Shown piece after piece: positions 22,426 through 58,740 of a stretch of 64,000 nucleotides of DNA. A program made the translations under genes and the position numbers. The notes beneath the pieces were generated by a model. The model did no database searches. It saw only the letters and a list, made by a program, of their open reading frames with translations, and was not told the DNA's origin. Every line of letters begins with the position of its first letter. Within the stretch, counting starts at the first letter, position 1. The DNA is from a virus, in the IMG/VR virus record IMGVR_UViG_3300028840_002623, positions 5,881 through 69,880 of that record; one strand, given 5' to 3'.

Positions 22426-23349
22426 TCAAGCCTTTTTTAGAGCCGTGGCTGATGAACTCCGGGAAGGCACTTGAGCCCCCACCTGTTTGTAAAACTCAAT
22501 TGTGTCTTTCAATCCTTCTTTCAAACTCAATTCCGGTTCCCAACCCAATCTTAAAATCCGGGAGATGTTCGCACAACTATGGCGAATGTCATATTGTAAT
22601 TGAGGAACGTGGTCTACAAATAATTTCTTCCCAGACACGTTCACTAACATCAGAAGCAAATTCAAGAGCGTATGTGACACCCCGGTTCCAACGTTGTACA
22701 CTCCGGTATGTCGGGATTTTCCCATCAACATAAGAGCCTTCACGACATCCTTCACGTGAACAAAATCCCGGCTCTGCATTCCATCCCCGTTGATTTGAAT
22801 TCGGTTGCCCCGGAGAATGCTGAGCGTGAAGGAAGGAATTGCGGCTTGAAGGTTCATTTGTCCCGGTCCATATACGTTGAAGAGCCTTAAACAAACTGTA
22901 GAAAGCCCGTGAACCCTTCTGTATAATCCGGTATAGATTTCTGCGGCACGCTTATTCACCCCGTAAGGACAGACGATGTTGTCACCCAACACTTCCTCTT
23001 CAGAAATCTTTTGACTCAGGCTATGCCCATATATAGCTGCAGAGGAAGTGAATATGAACCGGATATCTGACCGGGAATCCCGGCTTGCCTCCAAAAGGTT
23101 CACCGTTGTCAGTAAATCATCCCCCAAAGCCCTTTCCGGGAATTCAAATGAAGTGGACAGGTTTGTTTCCGATGCCAGGTGATATACCACATCCATCCCG
23201 TCAACTAATTCACAACACAATTCCCCGTCAGTCAAATCCATTCCGGTTTTCTTATCAGCCCCCGTGACAACATCACCTTGTTCCCGCAAAGCCTGAATTA
23301 AATGTCCGGCTATAAATCCGCTTGAGCCTGTTACTAAACATTTGGCCAT
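22426..23349 (-). CDS. NAD-dependent nucleotide-sugar epimerase/dehydratase
   Basis: TGSSGFIA, SSAAIYG, YGVNK, RLFNVYGP, RDFVHV. Confidence 0.92.
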   Translation of the reverse strand: MAKCLVTGSSGFIAGHLIQALREQGDVVTGADKKTGMDLTDGELCCELVDGMDVVYHLASETNLSTSFEFPERALGDDLLTTVNLLEASRDSRSDIRFIFTSSAAIYGHSLSQKISEEEVLGDNIVCPYGVNKRAAEIYTGLYRRVHGLSTVCLRLFNVYGPGQMNLQAAIPSFTLSILRGNRIQINGDGMQSRDFVHVKDVVKALMLMGKSRHTGVYNVGTGVSHTLLNLLLMLVNVSGKKLFVDHVPQLQYDIRHSCANISRILRLGWEPELSLKEGLKDTIEFYKQVGAQVPSRSSSATALKKA

Positions 23350-23978
23350 ACTGCATTTCCCTTTTCATCATACTGTTGTCCGCAAAAGCCTTCCATAGCC
23401 GGGTGGTCAGGAAAAGGAACACTTGGCCATTTAGTCTCAACGGATGAATGGCGTAACAGAGAATGTTCTATCAAAGGATGAACCTTGTCCCTGAGCCAAC
23501 GCATATCTTTTACACGTGGTTGATTTCTCCGGCAAAGCCTTAAAACTTCCCGGTGTAAATGTTTGGGCAAAACTCCGCATTTGATTCCCCACATCCCACC
23601 GGACATTGGAAGCCGGGAGTGGTGGGGGTGGTCTTTCATTTCGTGAGCGTTCAACCCGGATTGTTCCCAAGCCTTCACTGCTTCTGCTTCCTTCACGTTC
23701 AACCGGGAATCAGAGTCACGAAAAATTACACGCTCACCTTTAATGTCCCAAGCGGCAAGAAATCTCCAAAACATTCCTGAATGAATCCGGCTCTTGGGTT
23801 TGAAAACAATTTCACAACCCAAATTCCGCAACTCAGTTGCAACAATTCCCTTCTCACAATAATACCGAATTGTCCACCCCGGAAAAATCTCAGGAGCCAA
23901 TTGGGCATTGCATAAAGCCCCGTTGTAATAAACGGGAGAATTGCCATACAAACTTATACTGATTATTTTTTTAGCCAT
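23334..23978 (-). CDS. Glycosyltransferase-like protein (GT-A)
   Basis: KIISISLYG, GMFWRF, RDSDSR (DxD), GGMWG. Confidence 0.6.
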   Translation of the reverse strand: MAKKIISISLYGNSPVYYNGALCNAQLAPEIFPGWTIRYYCEKGIVATELRNLGCEIVFKPKSRIHSGMFWRFLAAWDIKGERVIFRDSDSRLNVKEAEAVKAWEQSGLNAHEMKDHPHHSRLPMSGGMWGIKCGVLPKHLHREVLRLCRRNQPRVKDMRWLRDKVHPLIEHSLLRHSSVETKWPSVPFPDHPAMEGFCGQQYDEKGNAVWPNV

Positions 23979-24592
23979 TCGTCATCATACCCAAAATTGT
24001 CAAAATCCGGTTCTGCCCATTTTATGATATTGTCTATTGTCTTCTGGTCAGCGTATAACTCCAACAAAGAAAGCCGTTCAATTTGTTCGCCTTCCACCTC
24101 TGCTTGAGCAACAATTTTTTCCGCTGTTGTATTGAGTTTGCTTATTTCAATACCATCCTTCCAAAACGGGAGTTGTATCAATTCCTTCTCAAGCCGTTCA
24201 AGATGAACAATGTGCAAAGGCTGAGCCGGGTTCAACCATTCGGTTTGGTTCTGTAACAGCGGTTGTTTTTGGCGTTCATTTTCCGAAACACTTAACATCC
24301 ATTCTGTAAATTTCGGAAAGTCATTTTGGGCTCCGCTCAAAGCCCGGAATTTGTATTGGTCTAAATGAGCCAACCGACAAGCACTGTACCAGATACTTGA
24401 AGCACGAGTAAATGGATTGCGAACAACAGTCCAACGGAAGTATTTGTCATAGTGGTCTACAATCCGATTGTTGTGAAACCCGGCTTCCAATAAACCATCT
24501 GAAAAATGTTCGTTCAGAATCCGGTAAATGGTATGTGTCCCGGCTTTTGGCGTTGACACATAAACAAATCTTTGTTTTTTATTTATTCTCAT
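23963..24592 (-). CDS. Sulfotransferase (family 2-like)
   Basis: 5'-PSB loop PKAGTHT; 3'-PB VRNPFTR..S. Confidence 0.85.
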   Translation of the reverse strand: MRINKKQRFVYVSTPKAGTHTIYRILNEHFSDGLLEAGFHNNRIVDHYDKYFRWTVVRNPFTRASSIWYSACRLAHLDQYKFRALSGAQNDFPKFTEWMLSVSENERQKQPLLQNQTEWLNPAQPLHIVHLERLEKELIQLPFWKDGIEISKLNTTAEKIVAQAEVEGEQIERLSLLELYADQKTIDNIIKWAEPDFDNFGYDDEWLKK

Positions 24593-25193
24593 ATTCCCAC
24601 CTCACTCCTATTTCATCCAAATTGTCGCACACCCATTCCAAATACCTTCCCGGTATATATTCCTTCCAATAACCGGGGACAACTTGACCAATGTGGTCAC
24701 CGTGAACTTGATATCGGTCCACTTCATTAAAACTTTCCAATACATCGGCTCTTTTTTTATTTTGCTCAACGCTGAATTTGCCGCTGATGCGGTGTTGAAT
24801 ATTCGGGGGTGTTATAATCCCAAATGTATCTTCAATCATTTTATAAATTGGACTGTGGTCATTATAAAACTCTTCATACCGGAGAATTGGAGCATGAGGA
24901 CCAACAAGCATTTCTTCCAACAGATTGAAACTCATTATTGTTCGCCTGACAACGGTCACAATATCATCGTCAACAACTTCCCTTTCATCTCTGTATCGGC
25001 TCATCCTGACTCTCAAAAGGGATGCAGCAACATCGTGAGGTTCACGGACAGATGCTATGACCATTGAGCCATCTGGCTCCCAATCTATGGGATGTGTTTT
25101 CGGAATGTTCATTTTTGGAAACACCGAATCCAATATTTGCCATACAACAGTTGACCCACTCCGGGGTATTCCGCACATTACAATATCTTGCAT
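24579..25193 (-). CDS. Sulfotransferase (family 1-like)
   Basis: GIPRSGST, KTH, VREPHDVAAS, LRYEE, G...G.WK. Confidence 0.85.
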   Translation of the reverse strand: MQDIVMCGIPRSGSTVVWQILDSVFPKMNIPKTHPIDWEPDGSMVIASVREPHDVAASLLRVRMSRYRDEREVVDDDIVTVVRRTIMSFNLLEEMLVGPHAPILRYEEFYNDHSPIYKMIEDTFGIITPPNIQHRISGKFSVEQNKKRADVLESFNEVDRYQVHGDHIGQVVPGYWKEYIPGRYLEWVCDNLDEIGVRWEYENK

Positions 25194-25783
25194 AAATCTT
25201 CCCTCAGATAAAAAGTGTTCCCTCCAAGCCTGCAAAACTCTTTGTAACCATTCATCTGGTACTTACTGCCTTCCATACAAACCAACTTGGGTGTATAGGA
25301 AAACAGATTCAAACTTTGCCACGCTTCATAATTCATTCCTTCAACGTCAATGGATAGAAAATCAATCTCACGTGGACAATTATATTCCTTCAACACTTGA
25401 GTCAAAGGTCTCATGAATACTTTTGTTTCAGTGTAACTCACTCCGTGATTTACTTCAGCTGATATTTTCACTTCCTCTTTGAAGGTGGAAACTTGTTCGC
25501 AACAATAGAAAGTTTTTTCACCTTCTGTAAGCCCAATTGCGCAATTGACACAACTGACTTGAGGATTGTCTTTGTACATCTCCTGTAACTTCTCAAATTG
25601 GGTGGGCTCAGGTTCAATACAAATGCCACCCCAGCCCCCGGTGTTCAATAACCGAATTGAGTTTGAATTCCAAAACCCATCTGCGGCTCCAACATCAACT
25701 ACAAAGCCTTCATCTTGGTCTTTGAATAGCCAATACAAGATTCTATCTTCACCGTGCTGTCCGCATCCTTCACCCTCTTTCAC
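25178..25783 (-). CDS. FkbM-family methyltransferase
   Basis: GQHGED, VDVGAADG, IEP, IDFLSIDVEG. Confidence 0.9.
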   Translation of the reverse strand: MKEGEGCGQHGEDRILYWLFKDQDEGFVVDVGAADGFWNSNSIRLLNTGGWGGICIEPEPTQFEKLQEMYKDNPQVSCVNCAIGLTEGEKTFYCCEQVSTFKEEVKISAEVNHGVSYTETKVFMRPLTQVLKEYNCPREIDFLSIDVEGMNYEAWQSLNLFSYTPKLVCMEGSKYQMNGYKEFCRLGGNTFYLREDLCKIL

Positions 25784-26564
25784 TTGCTGTCTCCAATATC
25801 AAATCCTTCCAAAACTCAAACCAGCATATGTCCATACGCTGACTGTGAAATAACTTCTTCAATTCCGGGTATTCCATCTTCAATCTTTCCGGGGTCACTT
25901 CACCCCAATGATTGACTTGAAGACAGGGCAAACCTTCCAACAACCGGGTTGCCGGGCTTTTCAATACAATCGGAATAGAGCCTAACAAAATTGACTCCCA
26001 ATGGCGGTGACAATCTGGTCCTGCTCCCGGTGGGCTCAAAATAAAAGGATGGCTCAACATCTGTTCGTAAAATTGATTCATTGATACGTGGTCAAACCCA
26101 CCTTCAGTTGTAACCCATTCTTTGTTCTCAAACATCTCATACAATCCGGCTCTTGGGTTGACTGGTCTGTCGTGGCGTTGAGGTATCTTTCTCCAGAAAT
26201 TCATATACACTAAATTGCGTTCAGGCAATCTCCCAACCTCCATCGCCTTTCTCATTCTTTCTTCTCCATCAGGAGATGTCCTCAAGCCGATTGGAACCGC
26301 TGTAACACGGGGGCTGGACGTGGCCACATTATTACTGAACCACATTTTGACGTTTGAAGGAAGTTGTTCAGCCATTTCGTCAGTACAATCCGCATCCGAA
26401 AAACTTGTCACCAAAACGCACTCCGGGTAATGGGACAAAATCCCGAATTGTTTGACCACAGTATGAGTCCGGGAATAGACAATTGGTCCTTCTTGGATTC
26501 TTTCCGATTTGAAAGTCACTCCGGCAAGTTCAGCCAGTCGTTGATTGTTGATAAAATTTTTCAT
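25770..26564 (-). CDS. Exostosin/GT47-like glycosyltransferase
   Basis: FILSPPGAGPDCHRHWESILLGSIPIV. Confidence 0.7.
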   Translation of the reverse strand: MKNFINNQRLAELAGVTFKSERIQEGPIVYSRTHTVVKQFGILSHYPECVLVTSFSDADCTDEMAEQLPSNVKMWFSNNVATSSPRVTAVPIGLRTSPDGEERMRKAMEVGRLPERNLVYMNFWRKIPQRHDRPVNPRAGLYEMFENKEWVTTEGGFDHVSMNQFYEQMLSHPFILSPPGAGPDCHRHWESILLGSIPIVLKSPATRLLEGLPCLQVNHWGEVTPERLKMEYPELKKLFHSQRMDICWFEFWKDLILETASERG

Positions 26565-27310
26565 AGTGTCGCCTTGATTAATGTTTCCAAATTCTTATGT
26601 CTGTCCCACTGATGTATTACCGCAGGAATGTCGCCATCCATATTTATTATCTTGTTGTCTTTTATCTTCACGTGCCCCCTGTGAATGTAACCGACAGTGT
26701 ACACTTCACCCTCTTCATTATCCCATACCCGGCAATCCAATTCTTCCCGGATTAAATAGTTGTGTGCGGCTTGGTCCTGAGGCTTGTCAGTCCGGGGTTG
26801 AATCCGCTGAACTTCCTCTACAAGCCTTTTGAGGTAAAATAACACCGAATCCCGGTCACCGCAGGAACATCCTACGCATGATATAAAGCTGTTTGATAAT
26901 TTTTCCAATACTTTCCCCGTATAACCCAGTGAAATCCAGAGAGAATTGTAGGGGCATGTCCCTATAGACATGCTCTGGTCTTCCAGATATACGTTTAAGC
27001 CTTCCGGGGGCAGATATTCACCCGGATTTTTCTGAAATACAACGTCTCTGGTATCGGTCAAGAATATGCCTTCACAGGGTATATCCCGGAGTGCTTCCTC
27101 AATACAAACAAACCGGGCAGAGTGCACTTTGATTCTTGGCTTGGGAACCGCTCTCAAATCAACATCCCACTTCTTGGCTTCCTCTGCCGCACCACCGTTG
27201 GCGAATAGTAAAATGCGCCCATCAAACCCGGAGTTGCGGAGTGATTTGAGAAATGGTCTGATTTGCTCAGCGTTATATCCACGGGCATATCCGGCTACAA
27301 CATCAATCAT
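26561..27310 (-). CDS. Glycosyltransferase-like protein (GT-A)
   Basis: LTDTRDVVFQKNP, DQAAHN, IHQWDR. Confidence 0.7.
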   Translation of the reverse strand: MIDVVAGYARGYNAEQIRPFLKSLRNSGFDGRILLFANGGAAEEAKKWDVDLRAVPKPRIKVHSARFVCIEEALRDIPCEGIFLTDTRDVVFQKNPGEYLPPEGLNVYLEDQSMSIGTCPYNSLWISLGYTGKVLEKLSNSFISCVGCSCGDRDSVLFYLKRLVEEVQRIQPRTDKPQDQAAHNYLIREELDCRVWDNEEGEVYTVGYIHRGHVKIKDNKIINMDGDIPAVIHQWDRHKNLETLIKATL

Positions 27311-27972
27311 TTTTTTATTTCCTCCAATGGAGTGAAGTCATTCCAAAGCCTTTCCGATTCAGGCTTCATTGCTTCATTAAGTTGGTCCAGAGGCAAGGGA
27401 GTTTTTGAGTACAATCCTGTCCACGGGATTTGATGACCATTCCCTACATATCCGAGTGGCTTGTGAATGTAACCTTTCCACTGTGATAAAAAATCATCCA
27501 AACGCTCCCATTCATATACCTCTGGACCGGGTGGTTCAAGGTCGTGAATGATAATTTGTTCCGCCAAATCTCCTAAATGAAGGACAGCCGGAACACGACA
27601 CGCTGTAAAGGTGTCTACAAAAAGAAGGTTATGATGTCCCAATCCTTTTGCAATGAATTCATAATACGCATTCATGGCGTCAAATTCCCCCGGTGGCAAT
27701 TCCGAAATCCTGGTTTGATTTTTGGCTTGGAACTGCTGAACAAGCCACTGGTGTGATACACCCGGAGAATAATGGTGGCGGATTTCGGTTGCCCACCGGG
27801 GGTCATGCTCTATGGTTGTCAAATGTTTCGCTGACCTTAAATGAGGTGTAGAATAATTCCCACAGCCGCACTCAACAATTGTTTCCGGTTTCAAAACTTC
27901 TAACACGGCTTTGAGAAGGGCTTGATGTGAGCCCCATGTCCGTTCTATGTCCCATTTTTTAGTCAGTCCCAT
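27307..27972 (-). CDS. Class I SAM-dependent methyltransferase
   Basis: VECGCGNYST, TIEHD, LFVD, IIHD. Confidence 0.75.
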   Translation of the reverse strand: MGLTKKWDIERTWGSHQALLKAVLEVLKPETIVECGCGNYSTPHLRSAKHLTTIEHDPRWATEIRHHYSPGVSHQWLVQQFQAKNQTRISELPPGEFDAMNAYYEFIAKGLGHHNLLFVDTFTACRVPAVLHLGDLAEQIIIHDLEPPGPEVYEWERLDDFLSQWKGYIHKPLGYVGNGHQIPWTGLYSKTPLPLDQLNEAMKPESERLWNDFTPLEEIKK

Positions 27973-28612
27973 TTGGCCATCCTTTCTTTTTTCGCTCATC
28001 AAATATTCGTTTGTCCTTCACCCATAATTTTTTCGCTTTGATTAGGTGAGGTGGTCTTTCCGGTTTTTCTTTCCGTTGCCAGTGGTCGTGGTATTGAATC
28101 AAATAATCCACCTGCTGGAAAGCGTTCATCTTGATTGCATACTCTTGTAACTCTTGGTCAGAGAAATAATGAAAATACTCTTCACGGTATGGACCATTGC
28201 CTTCATATGCTCTTTCTATGAATGAACGACCAATCCACGGGCTCACTGCGCACTTATGTGTCCAACCGAATTCATCGCCAATCGGTTGCATAACTCCGAA
28301 TGTGTTCGGAAATCGGCTGAGGAATATATCACCAATCTGTTCCGCTGTACTGTTCGGGTCAGGATATAAATCATCACCTGCGCAAACAACGATGTTTCCG
28401 GGAACACTGCGACAAAGAATATTTGCAGCAGTAGGAAATCCCATCCACTCATTTTGAACAACAACAATTTCGGCTTCAGGGAAATCCTCATTGGACATCG
28501 GGGGGTTGACTAACACCGCAACATTGTAACCGAAAGCGTGCCAGGTGTCAATCATCTCCCGGCTCTTTTCTAAATGAACAGTTGGCCATACAACCCATAC
28601 ATTCGGTTTCAT
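27959..28612 (-). CDS. GT2-family glycosyltransferase
   Basis: VVWPT, GFPTAAN, AGDD, YFHYFSD. Confidence 0.7.
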   Translation of the reverse strand: MKPNVWVVWPTVHLEKSREMIDTWHAFGYNVAVLVNPPMSNEDFPEAEIVVVQNEWMGFPTAANILCRSVPGNIVVCAGDDLYPDPNSTAEQIGDIFLSRFPNTFGVMQPIGDEFGWTHKCAVSPWIGRSFIERAYEGNGPYREEYFHYFSDQELQEYAIKMNAFQQVDYLIQYHDHWQRKEKPERPPHLIKAKKLWVKDKRIFDERKKKGWPNGTD

Positions 28613-29253
28613 TTCGCATATCCTTTTTTACCATTGATGAGATTCTTAAAACGCTTTGCCCCTCTGGTGTGCATAATGACCGGGCTTTTTTCTTCTGGAC
28701 ATCTCCGTTGAGTCAGTCCTGTTATCCAAGTATAGGATTGAGGCAACTCTACATAATTGATTGTCATCCTTTGTATTGCCATCTCCAATGTTCGTTGGTC
28801 CCATGCTTCCCTTCCGTTGGGTAATGTATCTGGATATTTTTCATTCAACCGAATCCATTTGTCAACAAGCCGTTGACAAGCCATCGTGTTCCCCAAGTAC
28901 AACGTGCCAGACAACAATTCCCTTCCCTTGGCGAAATGAACAGCGGCAATATCGGCTTCCAAATCATTTAACAATACCGGGGGTTCAACCATTATCGCAT
29001 CAACGTCTAAATACAATAAAGGGTTGGGGGAAAATCTTTCCAGAGCGTATTGAATGAATAAGGCTTTGTACTGAGTATTCTTTTGCCAACTTCCCAAATT
29101 GGGAACCCCAGCAACCCAATAACCATAGTCCAGCCCCTCCAAAGATTCTTTCAGTGTCTCTGCTTCGTGTTGGTATGGGGTGTCCACCGTATAATACGCT
29201 ATGACCAAAGGGGTGTGCGATGTTTTGTAAAAAGATTCAGCCACTATATCCAT
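28609..29253 (-). CDS. Nucleotide-diphospho-sugar transferase (GT-A)
   Basis: LYLDVDA, LSGTLY, WDQ, PVIMH. Confidence 0.75.
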   Translation of the reverse strand: MDIVAESFYKTSHTPLVIAYYTVDTPYQHEAETLKESLEGLDYGYWVAGVPNLGSWQKNTQYKALFIQYALERFSPNPLLYLDVDAIMVEPPVLLNDLEADIAAVHFAKGRELLSGTLYLGNTMACQRLVDKWIRLNEKYPDTLPNGREAWDQRTLEMAIQRMTINYVELPQSYTWITGLTQRRCPEEKSPVIMHTRGAKRFKNLINGKKGYAK

Positions 29254-51487: not shown

Positions 51488-51679
51488 TTATTTTTCATCC
51501 GGCTCTTTCGGGGGCTTCAATGTCTCTTCATTTCGGATGATGTCAATCATCCCATTCTTGAACTCAATTGTCATCTTCCCGTACCATCTCCGTTTTTGAG
51601 CTGACACCAACAGTCCGTTTGTCCAATTCAATTCTTCCTCTTGTTTCTGTAACACTTTCGGGTTTTTAATTGTTTCCAT
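51488..51679 (-). CDS. Small DUF2292-like protein
   Basis: YGKMTIEFKNG.I..I...ETLK. Confidence 0.55.
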   Translation of the reverse strand: METIKNPKVLQKQEEELNWTNGLLVSAQKRRWYGKMTIEFKNGMIDIIRNEETLKPPKEPDEK

Positions 51680-52592
51680 TTTTCCTCCACCATTTGATTG
51701 TTCTTTGCAAACCTTTATGCAGTTCTGTTTTTGGTTCCCAATTTATTTCTTTCTGGGCTTTTGAAATGTCCAATTCTCTTGCTGGTTGTCCATCCGGTTT
51801 GCTTCTGTCCCATATTATTCCTCCATCATACCCCATCAACTCCCGTATCAAATAAACCAACTCATGTATTGCAACGCTTTTTCCCGTTCCCAAATTCATT
51901 GGTTCAGGACTGTCATACATTTCCATAGCGTCAACAATTCCTTCAGCACAATCATCTACAAATAAAAATTCACGGGTTGCTTCCCCTGTCCCCCAAACTT
52001 CCACCGTTGGCAGATTATTTTTTATTGCTTCATCAAACTTCCGAATCAAAGCCGGAATGACATGTGATGACTCCGGGTTGAAATTGTCTTCAGGTCCATA
52101 CAGGTTGACCGGAATGAGATAAATGCCGGGAAAATTATATTGTTCCCGGTATGCCTGTGTCTGAACCAACAACGCTTTTTTCGCAATGCCGTATGGCGCA
52201 TTTGTTTCTTCCGGGTATCCCTTCCAAATGTCTTCCTCTTTGAATGGAACCGGAGTGTATTTCGGATATGAACAAACTGTGCCAATTGTTACAAACTTCT
52301 TCAATGGTTTATTTGACCAACAGGCTGCATCTATCAACTGAACTCCCATCATCAAATTATTATAAAAGAATTCAGCAGGGTGTTCCCGGTTTGCTCCAAT
52401 CCCACCACACATTGCGGCAAGATGAATAATTGCTTCCGGTTGAAACTTGTCAAGATAAGAAATTACTTGGTCAGGATATAACAAGTCAACCTCATTGTGA
52501 GTTGGTATTCCCACCTCATGCCCTCTTTGCACCAAATGAAAATTTACATACTTTCCTAAAAAACCATGCCCACCTGTCACCCATACTTTCAT
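51666..52592 (-). CDS. fcl: GDP-L-fucose synthase
   Basis: GGHGFLG, LAA.CGGIGAN, CSYPK, YGIAK, NLYGP.DNF..SHVIPALIRK, KPDGQP. Confidence 0.95.
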   Translation of the reverse strand: MKVWVTGGHGFLGKYVNFHLVQRGHEVGIPTHNEVDLLYPDQVISYLDKFQPEAIIHLAAMCGGIGANREHPAEFFYNNLMMGVQLIDAACWSNKPLKKFVTIGTVCSYPKYTPVPFKEEDIWKGYPEETNAPYGIAKKALLVQTQAYREQYNFPGIYLIPVNLYGPEDNFNPESSHVIPALIRKFDEAIKNNLPTVEVWGTGEATREFLFVDDCAEGIVDAMEMYDSPEPMNLGTGKSVAIHELVYLIRELMGYDGGIIWDRSKPDGQPARELDISKAQKEINWEPKTELHKGLQRTIKWWRKNGNN

Positions 52593-53539
52593 TTCAATGC
52601 CTCCATTTCTGAATTTAAGATTTCCATCAACATTAAATCAAACGGCAGAATGGGCTCCCAATCCAACTTTTCTTTCGCTTTGCTTGCATCACCACAAAGG
52701 TATGGAACCTCAAGTGGTCGTTTCAATCGGGGTGATTCAACTGTATAATCTCTCCAATCTAATTTGACCAATTCAAAAGCCCGTTGACACAATTGCCAAA
52801 CTGTATGTGTTTCCCCGGTTGCTAATACATAGTCATCCGGTTCAGGCTGTTGAAGCATCAACCACATTCCCCGAACATAGTCAGGAGCATAGCCCCAATC
52901 CCTAATACCTCCTAAATTTCCCACTTCAAGTTTGTCCTGTAACCCGGCTTTTATTCGGGCAACCGCACGGCAGACTTTCCTTGTAATGAACGTTGGACCA
53001 CGTCTGGGACTTTCGTGATTGAAAAGTATTCCGCAAGACACATGCAGTCCGTATGCCATCCGGTATGTTTGGGCCAAACGGTGTGCCGCAAGTTTGGCAA
53101 TTCCATACGGGGAAACAGGAGCAAATTCATTCTCTTCATTCATTGTCCCTTCTACATCTCCATACATTTCGGAAGTTGAAGCCTGATACATTCGGATTTC
53201 TCTTGGACTGTCTTTTATCGCTTCCAAAAGCCGGAGTGTTCCAAGAGCGTTTACATCCATGGTATATTCTGAACACTCAAAACTGACCTTCACATGCGAT
53301 TGAGCGGCAAGATTGTACACCTCATCGGCTTGGCTTTCATACAACACGTGTCTCAGGCTTGTACCATCGGTCATATCTCCAAAATGTAAGTGAAGGTTAT
53401 CAAATACATGGTCAATCCGTTGAGTGTTGAACTGTGATGCCCTTCTGACAATTCCGTGGACTTCATACCCCTTGTCCAAGAGCAGTTCAGCCAAATAGGA
53501 ACCATCTTGTCCGGTGATTCCGGTAATGAGGGCTTTCAT
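52589..53539 (-). CDS. gmd: GDP-mannose 4,6-dehydratase
   Basis: ITGITGQDGSYLAE, AAQSHV, QASTSE, SPYG.AK, LFNHESPRRG, RDWGYA. Confidence 0.97.
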   Translation of the reverse strand: MKALITGITGQDGSYLAELLLDKGYEVHGIVRRASQFNTQRIDHVFDNLHLHFGDMTDGTSLRHVLYESQADEVYNLAAQSHVKVSFECSEYTMDVNALGTLRLLEAIKDSPREIRMYQASTSEMYGDVEGTMNEENEFAPVSPYGIAKLAAHRLAQTYRMAYGLHVSCGILFNHESPRRGPTFITRKVCRAVARIKAGLQDKLEVGNLGGIRDWGYAPDYVRGMWLMLQQPEPDDYVLATGETHTVWQLCQRAFELVKLDWRDYTVESPRLKRPLEVPYLCGDASKAKEKLDWEPILPFDLMLMEILNSEMEALK

Positions 53540-53961
53540 TTGTCTTTCTTTTCTTCCGGCTTAATGTTTGACACAAAAGTTTTACCACCCTCACCTTCTT
53601 TAGTACGGCTCAAATCTTCCATTTTTTTCAATTCTTTTTTTCGGGTATCAATATCAATACTTTTTAATTCTTCCATACTTATTTTGTCTTCTTTCAATAC
53701 ATTCTTTCCGGGCATCATATCAAGACATGTGCCGATATTTTTCAAGGCTTCACCCATCTCCATATACTGCATTAAAATCCGGTTGTGTACTTCCGGGACA
53801 GTTGACTTGGAAAACATCGGATGTGTCATCGCTTTACTCTGTAATGAAAATAATTTGCCCATCTGCTCATACTGAGCACACAGGGTTCTGAATTGCTCTT
53901 TTGTTTCAGTTGACAATTCCAAATTGTTGAACGCCATTCCTTTTTTCTTCTTGGTTCCCAT
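53536..53961 (-). CDS. Hypothetical protein sharing a motif with TerS
   Basis: AAGGAG RBS; ISMEELKSIDIDTRKKEL. Confidence 0.65.
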   Translation of the reverse strand: MGTKKKKGMAFNNLELSTETKEQFRTLCAQYEQMGKLFSLQSKAMTHPMFSKSTVPEVHNRILMQYMEMGEALKNIGTCLDMMPGKNVLKEDKISMEELKSIDIDTRKKELKKMEDLSRTKEGEGGKTFVSNIKPEEKKDK

Positions 53962-53973
53962 TTACATTCTCCT

Positions 53974-55023
53974 TCAAAATAATTCTTTACCAACCCACGT
54001 ACTGCGTCGTTTTGCTTCCCTTACAGTTTGTGGTATTCTTTTGAACTCATCTCCCACATGGGATTTTCTTGGCAACTCTGACCTCAATGAGTCGTTGACA
54101 TTTTTCTTCTTTTCTCTTAATGACCGGGCTTGTCCCTTTTGCACTTCTCCAACGCTGGCTGGAAGCCATGCACAACGACAATTCGGATGTCTGGGTATCA
54201 GCCCCCGTGCCTCATCAATAGTGAATACAGTTCCTTCCAAATCTGCACATTGGTCGCAAACCTTCTCATCTTCAGCGGTGCTCCATTCTACATCCGCTGT
54301 CACTCCTTCAACTCCCAACTGTTGAAGAGCATCCAGCTGTCCTTCCGAATGTGCGTAAATGATTTCAGTCCGGGCTAATGTCATTGCCCGTTGTCTTGTA
54401 ATCCCGGTAATGGTCTCTGTCATATTCCGGGCAATCATTCTTGGACTCAAACCGTTGGCCATTCCATCCGCCAATACCCGGCTCAACTGTTGGGACATTG
54501 CCGCTGTAATCCCTTTCAACTCTTCAAATGACCGGGTATACAACAACTGTACTTTGCTTGTCATCTCCGGTTGAGCGAATGATGACTCAATAAACTGTTG
54601 TCTGCTTCCTTGGTAAAAATCCGGATTTTCAGCCATTATCTCCGGGTGCATTTCCGTATAACTCCGAACAGCACCCCTTCTGTACGATGAATGGACATAA
54701 GGGGCTGTCCACGGGTCACCCACTATGGGGTCAACAAACAACGGGGCATTTGGTTCAGCGAGTTGTTCTGTAAGCCACGATTGAAATGAGGTTATTTTTT
54801 CGGCATCAGTTCTGAACCTCCACGCTTGTCTTTCCGGGAGTTGGTTTGCAACCAATAACTCCCGGTTGAAGGCAAATGGTTCGCTTTCCTCAAGCCCCAA
54901 AACATCCAACTTCCATATTGCTTGGATTATCAAACTGCGGATATAATAAAACCGCTTGCGCATTTCGGCTTCATATGCCCTGCGCAATGTTGTTGTCCGG
55001 GTTGGGTCAAGTTTGAGTACCAT
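53974..55023 (-). CDS. Head morphogenesis protein (SPP1 gp7 / Mu F)
   Basis: RA.TLARTE, W.TAED.KVC..C, IPRHPNCRC. Confidence 0.92.
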   Translation of the reverse strand: MVLKLDPTRTTTLRRAYEAEMRKRFYYIRSLIIQAIWKLDVLGLEESEPFAFNRELLVANQLPERQAWRFRTDAEKITSFQSWLTEQLAEPNAPLFVDPIVGDPWTAPYVHSSYRRGAVRSYTEMHPEIMAENPDFYQGSRQQFIESSFAQPEMTSKVQLLYTRSFEELKGITAAMSQQLSRVLADGMANGLSPRMIARNMTETITGITRQRAMTLARTEIIYAHSEGQLDALQQLGVEGVTADVEWSTAEDEKVCDQCADLEGTVFTIDEARGLIPRHPNCRCAWLPASVGEVQKGQARSLREKKKNVNDSLRSELPRKSHVGDEFKRIPQTVREAKRRSTWVGKELF

Positions 55024-55765
55024 GTTTTTCCCTTATAGCAGTTGCACTTATTGCCTCTGTGTCCATATCCAATCGGATTTCTCTGATGCCCCACCCTACT
55101 TTGCGTCCATAACACACCTCTTTCACGTCAGGCACGACAATAACTTTTATTCTGTCCCCGAATACATCTTGTATCATCTTCTTTCGCTCTGCTGTGGTGT
55201 ACGGATTTGAAGGTGTTATCATTGTATCCCGGAGTGCAACACAAACATCTTTCCCTTCATCCAATACCGATTGAAACAATTTGATATGACCTTCGTGTAA
55301 TGGTTGGTATCTGCCTATGAAATAACTGTACTCATAATTGTCTTCTTTTAACACCAACATTAAACTCCGCAAAGATTCCATCGGCAAAAGATGATTGTGG
55401 TCAACTTTGTAATGGTATTCTTCCTCTGAAGGCTCTTCATAAAAATGTCCTTCACGCTCTGGCATATCCCGTTTTACATACACCCAAATCGGATGACACA
55501 CTTCATCAATTTCTTTTCTCACTTCCTCCATTGGAGCAATTACAGATACAACAACGGGTTTTTGTTCACTGAGAACCTTGGCAAGCCGGGCAACACGTAA
55601 GTTATGCTCACGCCTATCATCCCGGCTGAACCCGGCTCCCAGTGATATTGAATCCCGCATTTCGTCACCATCTAACAAAACACCATCCAAGCAATCCGCC
55701 AGCGGTCTGCCCACTGTAGTTTTTCCCGCACCGCTTTGTCCTGTCAGCCACACAATCTTATTCAT
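55007..55765 (-). CDS. cysC: Adenylylsulfate kinase fused to a HIGH-motif nucleotidyltransferase
   Basis: WLTGQSGAGKTT, LDGD.MR, GFSR.DR, YEEP; then IGRYQPLHEGH, NPY, ISATAIR. Confidence 0.88.
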   Translation of the reverse strand: MNKIVWLTGQSGAGKTTVGRPLADCLDGVLLDGDEMRDSISLGAGFSRDDRREHNLRVARLAKVLSEQKPVVVSVIAPMEEVRKEIDEVCHPIWVYVKRDMPEREGHFYEEPSEEEYHYKVDHNHLLPMESLRSLMLVLKEDNYEYSYFIGRYQPLHEGHIKLFQSVLDEGKDVCVALRDTMITPSNPYTTAERKKMIQDVFGDRIKVIVVPDVKEVCYGRKVGWGIREIRLDMDTEAISATAIREKHGTQT

Positions 55766-57266
55766 TGTTCATTTCCTCCTGAGGTTCAGTTGTTCCATTT
55801 GCTTCCTCTTCAGCCACAGCGGCATCAAGTTCAGCTTGCTCATCTTCAAATTCCTTCTGACGCTTTTCTGCCGCCTTGATAATTTCTTTGATTTCGGCTT
55901 CATCAAGGTCCATAAACATCTTGAAGAATATCTCCGGTGGGATGAGCAGGTCAACTCCGCCAGCAACATACTTGCTGAACGCTTCCACCCGTGCCTTCAG
56001 CACTGTCGCCTTGTCCAATTCGGAAGGCTGAGCAAGGTCAGGCCAAATTATTTCATATTTTTTCGGCTCTGGCAACACGCCATACGCTATGAGCCTGTCA
56101 ACCAATGGTCTGATAATGTACGGGGAAAGATACTTGTTCTGTCTCCGGGCAATTCGCTTGTTCCAATTCCGGGCATCTTCCTCTGCCGCAAGTTTTGCTT
56201 GTTCAGAGCCCATAAAAATCCGCTTGGGCACTCCCATCGCAATCGCAATTATTTCCAACTGAACATCCACGTGGGCTTTCGGTTCAGCAACTTGGGGATT
56301 GAGACTGTTGACGGATATTCCTTGAAGCCTCAAATACCTCTGAAGCCCGTTTGCATAACTTGTTATCTGTTCGGTCAGTGCGGCATCTTCATCTGAGCCT
56401 GCAACCGGGGCTTGGGCTTGTGGGTCCATTTCAAATGCATAGCCGGGGAATCCACCCTTCCAAAACATCTCAGCAGAACCACCACAGATTTTTCTCAGGT
56501 CATAAAGCCGATTGAATAATGATTGCATCCGGGGAACACCGAACACTTCTGAACTTTCCCGGTTGTCCGCCACGTGAATCAATCTTGTCCAATGGACCAA
56601 CTCACCTTTCCCGGTATCAATTTTGGAATCACCCGTGCTGGCTTGCGGTTGTGCAGCATCCCCGAATGTGATTTCATACATCACGGGCTTTCCATACCGT
56701 GGGTTCATCTTGTCACGTTGGGTGCTTTTTACTTTGACAACTGATTCGGAGAAAGCCCGGAGAAAAAGCAATTCATATTCCGGTCTGTTTTCGGTCACAT
56801 CACCTTTCTCATCTATTCCTTCCACGGGGTCACTCAATTTCTTTCCATCATTCAACCCCAAAAGCAATACACCAAACCTTCCAATGCCGGACAGTCTGTC
56901 AATCCTGAGCATGAATGCATTGAGGTTGCGTTGCTGTTCCAAATCCTTCCAACTCTTTTCAAACTCAGTGTCATCCCCTTTAACATCCTCAACAATCTGA
57001 GGTTCATCTGCCCAACTTTCTTCCGGGAACAAACTCACGACACGGGTTGCCAGCCCTTCCCGGTCATACATCAACTGATATTGGTCTGTGGTCAACTCTT
57101 TCGGGTATCCACATTCATCGTCAATGTCCCTTCTTGGGTCAATAAGGTTGCTCAACAACGATGAACGGCTCATACTGGCGTTCAGCATCATATCCCGAAT
57201 CACCTGTTTGTCTTTTTCATTGAGCACAACAGGGGGCTCAACTTTTTCTTTCTTTCGTATCTTCAT
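55758..57266 (-). CDS. Portal protein (DUF1073-like)
   Basis: Follows TerL; PRYGKP.MY, VHWTRLIH, VPKRIF.G. Confidence 0.88.
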   Translation of the reverse strand: MKIRKKEKVEPPVVLNEKDKQVIRDMMLNASMSRSSLLSNLIDPRRDIDDECGYPKELTTDQYQLMYDREGLATRVVSLFPEESWADEPQIVEDVKGDDTEFEKSWKDLEQQRNLNAFMLRIDRLSGIGRFGVLLLGLNDGKKLSDPVEGIDEKGDVTENRPEYELLFLRAFSESVVKVKSTQRDKMNPRYGKPVMYEITFGDAAQPQASTGDSKIDTGKGELVHWTRLIHVADNRESSEVFGVPRMQSLFNRLYDLRKICGGSAEMFWKGGFPGYAFEMDPQAQAPVAGSDEDAALTEQITSYANGLQRYLRLQGISVNSLNPQVAEPKAHVDVQLEIIAIAMGVPKRIFMGSEQAKLAAEEDARNWNKRIARRQNKYLSPYIIRPLVDRLIAYGVLPEPKKYEIIWPDLAQPSELDKATVLKARVEAFSKYVAGGVDLLIPPEIFFKMFMDLDEAEIKEIIKAAEKRQKEFEDEQAELDAAVAEEEANGTTEPQEEMNNE

Positions 57267-57267
57267 A

Positions 57268-58740
57268 TCAAAAAACTCCTATTCTGCCACGCTGTGAAAA
57301 CGTAAGTAAAGTGAACGCACCGCTGGTCGCATCCACTTGGTCCTTGTATTTTGAATTCGGGAACAATGTTAATTCATTCATATAGGTATTATTCCACTCA
57401 GCTGATATCAGGTATACATTCCCTACATTCACCTGTGCGGAGAAAGGCATTGCCCGAATCACCTTGTCACCCGATGGTCGTTGAACCTCCACATTATACC
57501 CCCGGAGATTCTTCACTGTGTTTTGTGCTGATTCTTTTCCACCACTTCCCGGCTCTTGCTCAATCCCAATCTTGACGCCAATCCCATCCATCTGTGCCGT
57601 CAACTTGACCAGCTTTTCTCTTTCCCCGGTATCCAACTGAACCCGGATTACATCCAGAATCCAAAAGCGGTGTTCCTTGTCCTCACCCATTAACACCCCT
57701 GCTGTAAACGCACCGCCACCTTCCGTACCTGCTTTGTCCCAATACCGGATTTTCTGAATCCAATCCGCTGGTGCTGTCGGTGCGACATCCACTTTCAACC
57801 GGGCTGTCTTGAACATACCACCTTCCAACGGGACAGGCAATTGCAAAAACTGACCTGCATACCCGTATTCAAGCAACTTGGACAATGCCTCATCCAACGC
57901 TCTCCGGGAAAGCCGAATGGGGTCAAGCAATCGCACCCCTTTCTTCTTGGGGTCAGGTACATATTTCTGTCGCAGTGCTTTGGGCTTAATGGTCTTGTAT
58001 GATTTCCGATTCACTTCTGCGGGCAGGTTGATGTGTTTCACCCGTACCTTTTTCTGCCCTAACATATCAGCGGTTGGGTCATCTTCATGCAACCGCTGCA
58101 TTATCAAAATCGTGGGTGTAATATCCTTGTCCACTTTCCGGGAAGACAATGTCTCACGTATCCAAACATTTGCATTCTTGAGTTCAACTTCAGATGATGC
58201 TTCCTGCGGGTTCAACGGGTCATCTATTATCAAGAAGTGCCCGTGGTACCCAGTGACTGTGCCCCCGGTGGAAGTTGAGAACCTATAACCACCTTGGGTA
58301 TTCTCAAAAAGCCCCTTGGTGTTCTGGTCACCCCGGAGTTCAAGGTGTTGGAACAACTCCCGGTATTTTTCGCTGGTAATAATGTCCCGGCTCTTTCTGC
58401 TTAATTGGAGTGATAAAGCATATGAATACGAACCACAGATGGACCTGGAGGTGGGCATTCTGGTCCATACCCAAGCCGGGAACATTACTGAACATATAGT
58501 TGACTTGGTTGAGCCGGGTGGAACGTTGATTACCAAATCATATTTCTTCCGCTTGCCCGCAAATACTCTTTCCGCCACCTTTTGCATTTCTGCGCATACA
58601 TACTCAATATGCCAATTCCATATCGGCTCTTCAGGCACCACCGTGTCCCAGAAGTATTGCACAAAGTCAAAGAAGCTGTCTTCCAATATTGACTTTTGCA
58701 ATAGTGTTCGGGATATGCGGGGTTGCTCTGTCACGGTCAT
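57268..58740 (-). CDS. terL: Terminase large subunit
   Basis: INVPPGSTKS, IIDDP, IMQRLHEDD, RYWDKA, KDQVDA. Confidence 0.95.
   Translation of the reverse strand: MTVTEQPRISRTLLQKSILEDSFFDFVQYFWDTVVPEEPIWNWHIEYVCAEMQKVAERVFAGKRKKYDLVINVPPGSTKSTICSVMFPAWVWTRMPTSRSICGSYSYALSLQLSRKSRDIITSEKYRELFQHLELRGDQNTKGLFENTQGGYRFSTSTGGTVTGYHGHFLIIDDPLNPQEASSEVELKNANVWIRETLSSRKVDKDITPTILIMQRLHEDDPTADMLGQKKVRVKHINLPAEVNRKSYKTIKPKALRQKYVPDPKKKGVRLLDPIRLSRRALDEALSKLLEYGYAGQFLQLPVPLEGGMFKTARLKVDVAPTAPADWIQKIRYWDKAGTEGGGAFTAGVLMGEDKEHRFWILDVIRVQLDTGEREKLVKLTAQMDGIGVKIGIEQEPGSGGKESAQNTVKNLRGYNVEVQRPSGDKVIRAMPFSAQVNVGNVYLISAEWNNTYMNELTLFPNSKYKDQVDATSGAFTLLTFSQRGRIGVF

Follow-up and report, generated by a model that had tools for sequence, protein, structure and literature searches.

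A lid-less APS kinase joined to a minimal HIGH nucleotidyltransferase in tailed phages: a candidate minimal PAPS synthase

The 64,000-nucleotide stretch analyzed here (the window) makes up most of IMG/VR virus record IMGVR_UViG_3300028840_002623, a complete virus genome of 69,880 bp with direct terminal repeats. On its minus strand, an ATG-started open reading frame (ORF) of 252 amino acids at 55007..55765 encodes P0001, a fusion of a lid-less adenosine 5'-phosphosulfate (APS) kinase and a minimal HIGH nucleotidyltransferase. We consider it fairly likely that P0001 is a minimal bifunctional enzyme that makes 3'-phosphoadenosine 5'-phosphosulfate (PAPS) in two steps, using an ATP sulfurylase domain that is not of the Sat family. 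The kinase half very probably makes PAPS and the small half is probably a sulfurylase; the second catalytic step, APS phosphorylation, stands on firmer ground than the first, sulfate adenylation. With confidence only a little better than even, we further propose that the domain of about 105 residues, derived from nicotinamide mononucleotide adenylyltransferases (NMNATs), represents a third, independently evolved and smallest class of ATP sulfurylase. Together with the lid-less kinase it would form the smallest PAPS synthase, by which phages, carrying it in their late operons, would sulfate the glycans of their own particles independently of host sulfate assimilation. Tailed phages carry the module widely, a few bacteria of the Candidate Phyla Radiation (CPR) have it as well, and archaea may do so. 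A sequence-only reading of the window had described the 252-residue ORF as a compact CysC domain joined to a domain of roughly 110 residues with GRYQPLHEGH, NPY and ISATAIR motifs. We recovered all of these, the domains being of about 140 and about 107 residues and the motifs lying at residues 151-160, 187-189 and 239-245. It had also suggested that the small domain may adenylate sulfate, so that one gene would supply PAPS to two sulfotransferases, or might instead activate a sugar- or polyol-phosphate; among the readings that comparative genomics can address, sulfate adenylation fits best.

The two domains of P0001

The ORF is not a chance one, since 1125 of 1852 candidates are homologs of P0001 at E ≤ 0.001. 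The best-scoring homologs are about 240–290 amino acids long and carry both domains. The few that are named are called "adenylylsulfate kinase" or "cytidyltransferase-like", and the match of P0001 to phrog_10255 ("kinase") extends over the full length (E = 2.9e-27). The predicted model of the whole protein has a mean pLDDT of 93.3 and a pTM of 0.82.

The kinase domain corresponds to residues 1-140 (55346..55765, on the minus strand like all features of the window given below). It is identified by Pfam, NCBIfam and PDB sequence matches, by conservation and by fold, with Z scores of 17.5-19.7 to APS kinases. It harbors the P-loop GQSGAGKT (residues 9-16, 55718-55741) and an LDGD motif (residues 31-34, 55664-55675). 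PF01583 (APS_kinase) scores 63.5 bits for a cut-off of 21.1 (E = 3e-17), with residues 3-98 aligned to model positions 3-108 of 152. The top PDB sequence matches are APS kinases, including 2yvu (E = 1.6e-13) and the kinase domain of human PAPSS1 (E = 1.5e-10). In the structural comparison (VIA), the closest matches are again APS kinases, with Z scores of 19.7 (2yvu, rmsd 2.0 over 139 aligned residues), 18.6 (2gks), 18.3 (4rfv) and 17.6 (3cr8), and the best Foldseek matches of the model are APS kinases throughout. Gluconate kinases (Z 16.3 and 15.0) and shikimate kinases (about 13-14) are the structural runners-up; dephospho-CoA kinases (11.7 and 10.9) and human nicotinamide riboside kinase (10.3) score lower.

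Conservation points to the same activity. Among 87 homologs with the same domain order, the P-loop residues G14 and K15 are invariant, as are G33, M36, R37, S39, S41, R51, N55, P78 and R83; D32 (at least 90%), F46, H54, I76 and A77 are nearly so, and D34 is nearly invariant in an alignment of 33 sequences. The LDGDxxR, GFSxxDR, HN and IAP positions are invariant or nearly so across the 87 homologs. APS kinases from humans, archaea and bacteria have a conserved R, F, R and N at the positions of R37, F46, R51 and N55; these four residues and the LDGDxxR, GFS, DR and HN positions contact APS in APS kinases. The LDGD aspartates of human PAPSS1 are essential for its APS-kinase activity (PMC8528679).

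The mini-nucleotidyltransferase domain covers residues 146-252 (55010..55330) and is identified by Pfam, NCBIfam, conservation and fold. HEGH lies at 55286-55297 and ISATAIR at 55031-55051. PF01467 (CTP_transf_like) scores 32 bits for a cut-off of 21 (E = 1.6e-7), residues 148-213 being aligned to model positions 1-68 of 133. The generic domain model TIGR00125 is reached (28.0 vs 27.7), and the NCBIfam NMNAT models remain below their cut-offs (NF002243, 38.3 vs 127; TIGR01527, 29.9 vs 181.2). The HxGH and SxTxxR motifs and the fold place the domain in the HIGH nucleotidyltransferase superfamily, whose members are also its nearest folds; the domain folded alone has a predicted pLDDT of 86.5. 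Among the 60 PDB matches listed, the nearest profile relatives are archaeal/NadM-type NMNATs (MJ0541, E = 6.6e-15), and glycerol-3-phosphate cytidylyltransferase, phosphopantetheine adenylyltransferase (PPAT) and NadR are weaker relatives (E = 3e-5 to 3e-4).

This similarity to NMNATs is limited to profile positions 6-75. Beyond position 75 the NMNAT part is replaced: the segment that links strand 4 to the last strand (about 35 residues) is missing, together with the C-terminal helical subdomain, and new arginines appear, R179, R221 and R228. In the 87 homologs, R152, H157, H160, R194, G220-R221, G224, R228, S240 and R245 are invariant and R179 is nearly so. A conserved RDT, YGRxVG(W/Y) and IS(A/G)TxIR are the hallmarks of the family. 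The arginine-rich replaced region would fit a small anionic substrate.

ATP sulfurylases transfer the adenylyl group of ATP to an oxyanion, and adenylyl transfer of this kind is the reaction type of the HIGH superfamily. In the mechanism that we propose, the C-terminal NMNAT-like domain of about 105 residues would transfer AMP from ATP onto sulfate, yielding APS and pyrophosphate, with HxGH and IS(A/G)TxxR serving as the ATP-binding motifs. Sulfate would be bound in an arginine-rich pocket (R152, R179, R221 and R228) replacing the NMN-binding region. The APS formed would pass to the fused N-terminal APS-kinase domain, whose phosphorylation of the 3'-OH to give PAPS would pull the unfavorable first step forward; the neighboring domain may compensate for the missing lid. 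As a gene expressed with the late virion genes, the fusion would supply PAPS to the phage's own, late-expressed sulfotransferases, and these would decorate a glycan built by the phage GDP-mannose 4,6-dehydratase (Gmd), epimerase and transferase genes. In hPAPSS1 the HNGH histidines are essential, and a docked sulfate is flanked by two arginines, of which one closely precedes HNGH and the other is distal (PMC11697783). In the mini-nucleotidyltransferase, the invariant R152 lies upstream of HxGH. Our proposal that R152 and R221 are equivalent to Sat arginines is a conjecture.

Pairing of the two parts, sources of APS and sulfotransferases

A search for viral contigs with a single protein found nothing, and an alignment-based search retrieved loci by means of kinase-only peptide patterns. 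ORFs were called and clustered by our own procedure; the greedy caller sometimes takes the wrong strand, so the cluster counts are approximate. We examined 33 loci, consisting of the window, L001-L031 and L185. The two parts are fused or lie within about 900 bp of each other in 30 of these, and only the kinase is present in L021, L022 and L024. Although retrieved by kinase-only patterns, 18 of 21 viral loci also contain the mini-nucleotidyltransferase. Kinase and nucleotidyltransferase occur in both fusion orders and also as separate adjacent genes. The profile of the mini-nucleotidyltransferase matches 1172 cluster representatives at E ≤ 1e-10. According to local hidden Markov models, the best 150 of these comprise 30 kinase-nucleotidyltransferase fusions, 26 fusions in the reverse order and 94 proteins with the nucleotidyltransferase only, about 70 of them shorter than 170 amino acids. 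The local kinase model undercounts, as Pfam shows APS_kinase in two of ten "nucleotidyltransferase only" proteins scanned; the partners in the other eight are a methyltransferase (two), an HNH endonuclease (two) and a weak DHHA1 match (one), and three consist of the nucleotidyltransferase alone. A canonical lid motif is found in 20 of the 56 kinase fusions.

A split arrangement with a canonical kinase occurs in a Moraniibacteria genome (L027), where a full lid-bearing CysC is followed by a stand-alone mini-nucleotidyltransferase of 116 amino acids. The gene order at L027:5834-8919 is a Wzt-type ABC ATPase, an inositol-monophosphatase-family gene (PF00459, E = 4.6e-42), CysC and the mini-nucleotidyltransferase. 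The inositol-monophosphatase family includes the PAP phosphatase CysQ, and the arrangement resembles a sulfation cassette linked to the export of polysaccharide. The predicted complex of a split pair from Peribacteria (kinase A5 and nucleotidyltransferase A6) scored 0.00, a value with no bearing on whether the two bind. The module often has glycosyltransferases and sugar epimerases as neighbors. The idea of one fixed operon was rejected, as neighborhood clustering showed no universally conserved neighbor.

The presence of known APS-producing enzymes was analyzed in phage and cellular genomes. The complete phage genome contains no Sat, CysD or inositol-monophosphatase-family gene. Seven cellular genomes have a full-length match to the mini-nucleotidyltransferase, six from CPR bacteria and one a gammaproteobacterial metagenome-assembled genome (MAG). 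Sat is absent from all seven, and CysD was found only in the gammaproteobacterium. Of 401 evenly sampled CPR genomes, only three carry the full-length mini-nucleotidyltransferase, and 19 other matches cover only the NMNAT-like first 75 positions; two loci of this latter kind were inspected (L188 and L190), and in neither does a kinase lie beside the partial match. PF01583 was detected in 30 of the 401 genomes: 14 strong canonical kinases (12 full-length and two cut by a contig end), three lid-less ones and 13 weak matches (26-32 bits). The three genomes with a lid-less kinase are exactly the three with the full-length mini-nucleotidyltransferase. In 10 of the 14 canonical-kinase genomes Sat is fused to the kinase (a frame of 488-630 amino acids) or adjacent, and two more have CysD on the same contig. 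Sat or CysD thus accompanies the kinase in 12 of 14 canonical-kinase genomes and in none of seven mini-nucleotidyltransferase CPR genomes (p = 3e-4). In CPR bacteria, therefore, an APS kinase is accompanied by Sat, by CysD or, instead, by the mini-nucleotidyltransferase.

Sulfotransferases are the presumed consumers of PAPS. The sequence-only reading had counted two in the window. The gene at 23963..24592 scores above the Pfam cut-off (PF03567, 28.2 bits vs 22), whereas its neighbor at 24579..25235 is a marginal candidate, matching PF13469 over an N-terminal stretch only (24.3 vs 27). They belong to a ten-gene block (22426-29253) that follows the tail genes and in which an SDR epimerase, a weak GT47-like match and an FkbM methyltransferase are also encoded. 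For the remaining five ORFs (23334-23978, 26561-27310, 27307-28002, 27959-28612 and 28609-29253), Pfam gave nothing at E ≤ 0.01. Elsewhere, a sulfotransferase (PF13469, E = 2.8e-18) lies immediately downstream of the kinase and nucleotidyltransferase pair in L012. In two Peribacteria loci, L030 and L029, a sulfotransferase-like gene lies immediately upstream, scoring 24.7 bits (cut-off 22) and 20.8 (below it), respectively.

At the level of whole records, PF13469 reaches E ≤ 0.01 in 11 of the 21 viral records that bear the module and one more has a PF03567 match, giving 12 of 21 where about 0.2 would be expected by chance from the per-record E values. As controls we used those 43 of 80 Gmd-bearing viral contigs that are 19-125 kb long, amounting to 1.73 Mb compared with 0.82 Mb for the test set. 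PF13469 was found at E ≤ 0.01 in four of these 43, significantly less often than in the module-bearing records (Fisher p = 3e-4). The module itself is absent from the 43 controls, which gave only two weak N-terminal matches to the HIGH motif. Rescans of ten ORFs turned two weak matches into clear sulfotransferases under another model, in L010 (PF00685, 69.8 bits) and L020 (43.1 bits), and confirmed those of L009 and L006; L014 (24.0), L019 (18.5) and L024 (15.7) remained below the cut-off. One candidate, L008:13807-14364, had clustered with a sulfotransferase-bearing protein and was discarded, as the rescan shows a methyltransferase. Altogether, a sulfotransferase scores above a Pfam cut-off in 6 of the 21 viral records, including all three that are at least 90% complete. 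Two cultured Stenotrophomonas phages, DLP_6 and Bhz60, encode distant relatives with 27-31% identity to the fusion, and each has a sulfotransferase match that exceeds the cut-off. In DLP_6 this is a match to PF03567 (35.5 bits) in another part of the genome, and in Bhz60 a partial match to PF17784 (Sulfotransfer_4-like, 26.2 bits) at L003:4978-5556, upstream of a NADAR gene and two genes upstream of the fusion.

Alternative activities

Several observations weigh against a PAPS synthase. On the kinase side, P0001 falls below the NCBIfam cut-offs for CysC, both for the equivalog_domain model TIGR00455 (61.1 vs 138.7) and for the subfamily model NF002059 (63.5 vs 244). Compared with canonical CysC, the alignment shows a clean deletion of the lid, about 22 residues, between E105 and G106. 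The canonical lid or cap segment carries conserved Arg, Lys and Phe, and its deletion is a real departure from the APS-kinase family. That the lid segment matters in APS kinases is stated in a preprint (bioRxiv 10.64898/2026.04.02.716029).

On the nucleotidyltransferase side, no sequence similarity to Sat was detected. P0001 has no PF01747 (Sat) match, Sat is absent from the 60 PDB profile matches listed, and hhalign against six Sat catalytic domains gave a probability of 0.9% over 16 columns around HxxH. The mini-nucleotidyltransferase is therefore not a member of the Sat family, and the idea of a shrunken Sat was rejected. The Sat motifs QxRNPxHxxH and GRD(H)AG are not present in P0001, which has GRYQPLHEGH and YGRKVGW instead; QTRNPxHRAH and GRD were found in six of seven Sat loci fetched, and no such ORF in the seventh, L201. 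In the structural comparison, the domain is nearer to cytidylyltransferases and NMNATs (Z 6.3-7.6) than to Sat (1v47, 5.5; 1r6x, 5.2; 1j70, 5.2; PAPSS1, 5.1; 4maf, 4.8), all values being below 8. The earlier argument from common membership in the HIGH superfamily thus holds for the chemical plausibility of sulfate adenylation and fails for kinship to Sat. If it makes APS, the domain would be a re-purposed NMNAT-like domain.

The genomic associations also have weak points. When only PF13469 matches above the cut-off are counted, the difference between module-bearing records and controls, which were searched with PF13469 only, is no longer significant (3/21 vs 3/43, p = 0.38). Nine of the 21 viral records, most of them fragments, have no sulfotransferase match, and at the genome level PF13469 was found in only one of the seven cellular genomes, a CPR genome with two strong sulfotransferases. 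Five of the seven mini-nucleotidyltransferase CPR genomes are titled Peribacteria or Peribacter (one is Moraniibacteriota) and are incomplete MAGs, so that few independent lineages are represented. As the mini-nucleotidyltransferase is also fused to methyltransferases and HNH endonucleases, fusion alone is not specific. Finally, sulfation leaves unexplained the NADAR gene that overlaps the fusion gene in Sano/Salvo-type phages.

These points leave room for other activities. A rather unlikely one, though deserving serious consideration, is that only the kinase serves sulfation by converting host-made APS into PAPS, and that the nucleotidyltransferase has another task in the glycan pathway, such as activating a sugar-, polyol- or other phosphate, or is a structural or regulatory accessory of the lid-less kinase without sulfurylase activity. 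Many bacteria make APS via CysDN or Sat, and a phage host could supply it. The kinship of the nucleotidyltransferase to the NMNAT, cytidylyltransferase and PPAT families rather than to Sat is compatible with this explanation, as are its fusions to sugar-type methyltransferases and the glycosyltransferases and sugar epimerases that often neighbor the module. However, it is to the kinase, and not to glycosyltransferases, that the nucleotidyltransferase is linked: the two are paired in 30 of 33 loci, some of which lie among early genes and are devoid of glycan genes. The nucleotidyltransferase also accompanies a canonical CysC beside a CysQ-family gene in L027, and it is missing from the 43 Gmd-bearing phage contigs. 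Moreover, the module-bearing CPR genomes have no other source of APS (Sat or CysD, 0/7), and the second-substrate region of the NMNAT relatives is missing from the domain. Alternatively, the fusion might resemble HldE, its P-loop kinase phosphorylating a sugar or sugar acid and its nucleotidyltransferase making an NDP-sugar for a phage glycan. Gluconate kinases are indeed close structural seconds (Z 16.3 and 15.0), the operon is shared with Gmd and an epimerase/reductase, and glycan genes are frequent neighbors. Nevertheless, we find this quite improbable: the APS-kinase positions LDGDxxR, GFS, DR and HN are invariant, the place of the lid-less kinase is taken by a canonical CysC with its lid in L027 and in 20 of the 56 fusions, and the enrichment in sulfotransferases is not predicted by such an activity.

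The relationship to NMNATs raises the question of NAD+ metabolism, in which the kinase would act on nicotinamide riboside and the nucleotidyltransferase would make NAD+, countering an NAD-depleting defense as NadR or NARP3 enzymes do. NMNATs are the best sequence relatives of the small domain, distant homologs of the fusion overlap a NADAR gene, and phage NadR-like enzymes with such a function exist (PMC13464706). The NMNAT similarity ends at profile position 75, however, and the rest is replaced; the NMNAT score is 38.3 where 127 is required; true NMNAT matches in CPR genomes are confined to that half, and neither of the two loci inspected (L188 and L190) has a kinase next to the match. In addition, the kinase is APS-kinase-like (Z 19.7 vs 10.3 for human nicotinamide riboside kinase), the domain order is the reverse of that of NadR, and a search of the complete phage genome for PnuC (PF04973) gave no match. 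We therefore rejected NAD+ rebuilding as the main explanation, on the truncated NMNAT similarity, the nature of the kinase and the lack of PnuC in the phage, and regard it as most unlikely. Hardly more credible is another 3'-phospho-adenylyl product, either by the logic of CoA synthesis (a PPAT-like step followed by 3'-phosphorylation) or from an AMP-X compound to which a 3'-phosphate is then added. PPATs are weak profile matches (E = 5.7e-5 and weaker), dephospho-CoA kinases share the kinase fold (Z 11.7 and 10.9), and a lid-less kinase might admit a group bulkier than sulfate. Against it, APS kinases clearly outrank dephospho-CoA kinases structurally, and no contextual feature points to CoA, the links to sulfotransferases, a CysQ-family gene and canonical CysC pointing to sulfate. 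A two-step PAPS synthase is the reading that we retain.

Genomic setting and comparison with known systems

In the window, the fusion gene lies in a late operon, downstream of the genes for the large terminase (57268-58740) and the portal (55758-57266) and upstream of that for a Mu-F-like head protein (53974-55023). Its ATG is preceded by AGGAGG, it shares eight nucleotides with the end of the portal gene, and its final 17 nucleotides are overlapped by the Mu-F gene, whose ATG is at 55023. These start and stop overlaps indicate that it is a translationally coupled late gene. A 141-amino-acid orphan (53536-53961), for which PHROG gave no match and Pfam none above noise, is encoded between Mu-F and Gmd and is translationally coupled to both. 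Gmd (52589..53539; PF16363, E = 1.5e-121) and an NAD-dependent epimerase/reductase of GDP-sugar type (51666..52592; PF01370, E = 5e-54) belong to the same operon and are followed, in minus-strand order, by a protease/scaffold, a decoration protein and the major capsid protein. In this phage the fusion speaks for a late operon that makes a sulfated glycan, which may sit on the virion. In two phage contigs encoding a homolog with 60% identity (L004 and L005), the fusion gene comes after the head genes and not between portal and Mu-F. Their head-gene clusters have terminase, portal-like and Mu-F-like genes in common with the window, and the position of the fusion within the late operon is therefore not fixed.

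Other features of module-bearing loci were noted. A predicted membrane protein of 75-83 amino acids is encoded beside or between the kinase and nucleotidyltransferase genes in four of the 21 viral loci (L008:8749-8976, L010:7781-8008, L015:8584-8811 and L016:8326-8577). The L010 copy has a weak match to DUF2061 (E = 3.7e-4), and tblastn did not find this protein in the window (best E = 1.4). In phages Bacata (L001:5565-6008) and Bhz60 (L003:5565-6008), an upstream NADAR (COG3236) gene overlaps the distant fusion homolog, among early genes. A Cpn60/GroEL-type chaperonin gene (PF00118, E = 3.8e-91) lies directly upstream of the fusion gene at L007:6562-7992. An ORF cluster near the module in five viral loci includes a member with a NUMOD3/HNH homing-endonuclease match (L008:278-955); the remaining members were assigned to the cluster with BLAST (L016:8972-9583, L019:7130-7702, L023:13031-13600 and L024:4529-5101). 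Some database proteins, such as P0161 and P0227, fuse an HNH domain to the mini-nucleotidyltransferase, and this suggests mobile-element traffic around the module. In P0144, P0145 and P0133 the mini-nucleotidyltransferase is fused to class-I or TylF-like methyltransferases and, once, to a protein that weakly matches DHHA1 phosphoesterases. Some pAp phosphatases are DHH/DHHA1 enzymes.

To our knowledge, sulfate activation has two known enzyme solutions, Sat and CysDN. Our literature search, which did not extend to supplementary files, found no description of this fusion or of phage-encoded PAPS synthesis. PAPS as the product of the pathway is textbook knowledge; a lid-less APS kinase joined to an NMNAT-derived mini-sulfurylase within 252 amino acids would be new. 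Archaeal clusters with the same two Pfam domains are automatically named "sulfate adenylyltransferase/adenylylsulfate kinase" in a protein atlas, which is a label and not evidence. If correct, the existence of a third sulfurylase, tiny and derived from NMNATs, would alter the way in which sulfation and sulfate assimilation are read from genomes, since such genes are at present labeled "adenylylsulfate kinase", "cytidyltransferase-like" or "kinase". It would also explain the APS kinases and sulfotransferases of CPR bacteria without Sat or CysD, and PAPS supply for sulfation would join the metabolic steps brought by phages. A one-chain PAPS generator of 252 residues would moreover be useful for sulfation biocatalysis in vitro or in cells.

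Like P0001, the known PAPS synthases, human PAPSS1/2, the Sat-CysC protein of Aquifex aeolicus (2gks) and the fungal Sat with an APSK-like domain, combine an adenylyl-transferring domain and an APS-kinase domain in one chain, and they too occur in both fusion orders. The kinase domain of 2gks is homologous to that of P0001 (Z 18.6, 33% identity over 141 residues). PAPS synthases are, however, 546-630 amino acids long, compared with 252 for P0001, and their sulfurylase is Sat (PF01747), whereas the P0001 domain of about 105 residues is NMNAT-like and lacks Sat profile similarity. Stand-alone CysC proteins (2yvu, 4rfv and 8a8h) have in common with P0001 the fold, the P-loop and the LDGDxxR, GFSxxDR..N and (I/V)(S/A)P motifs. 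They possess the lid, whereas the P0001 kinase lacks these roughly 22 residues, scores below the NCBIfam CysC cut-offs and is partnered with the mini-nucleotidyltransferase. Archaeal/NadM NMNATs (1f9a, which is MJ0541, 1ej2 and 2qjo) share with the small domain the GRxQPxHxGH start, NP(F/Y)..ER, the SxTxxR end and the fold (Z 6.9-7.5); where they have GSAQ, the mini-nucleotidyltransferase has (I)RDT, plus the conserved YGRxVG(W/Y).

Other bifunctional enzymes show a comparable architecture. HldE likewise unites a kinase and a cytidylyltransferase-like domain in one chain for glycan synthesis, and HldC, an HldE-related adenylyltransferase, is a structural match of the mini-nucleotidyltransferase (Z 6.5). 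The HldE kinase is of the ribokinase type, however, and not of the P-loop APS-kinase type. The NARP3 enzyme Bas30_86 and NadR are also fusions of a HIGH nucleotidyltransferase and a P-loop kinase, the former in a phage (PMC13464706). They differ from P0001 by the opposite domain order, a kinase of another family and a PnuC partner; the genomic context of P0001 is that of sulfation and glycan synthesis, not of NAD.

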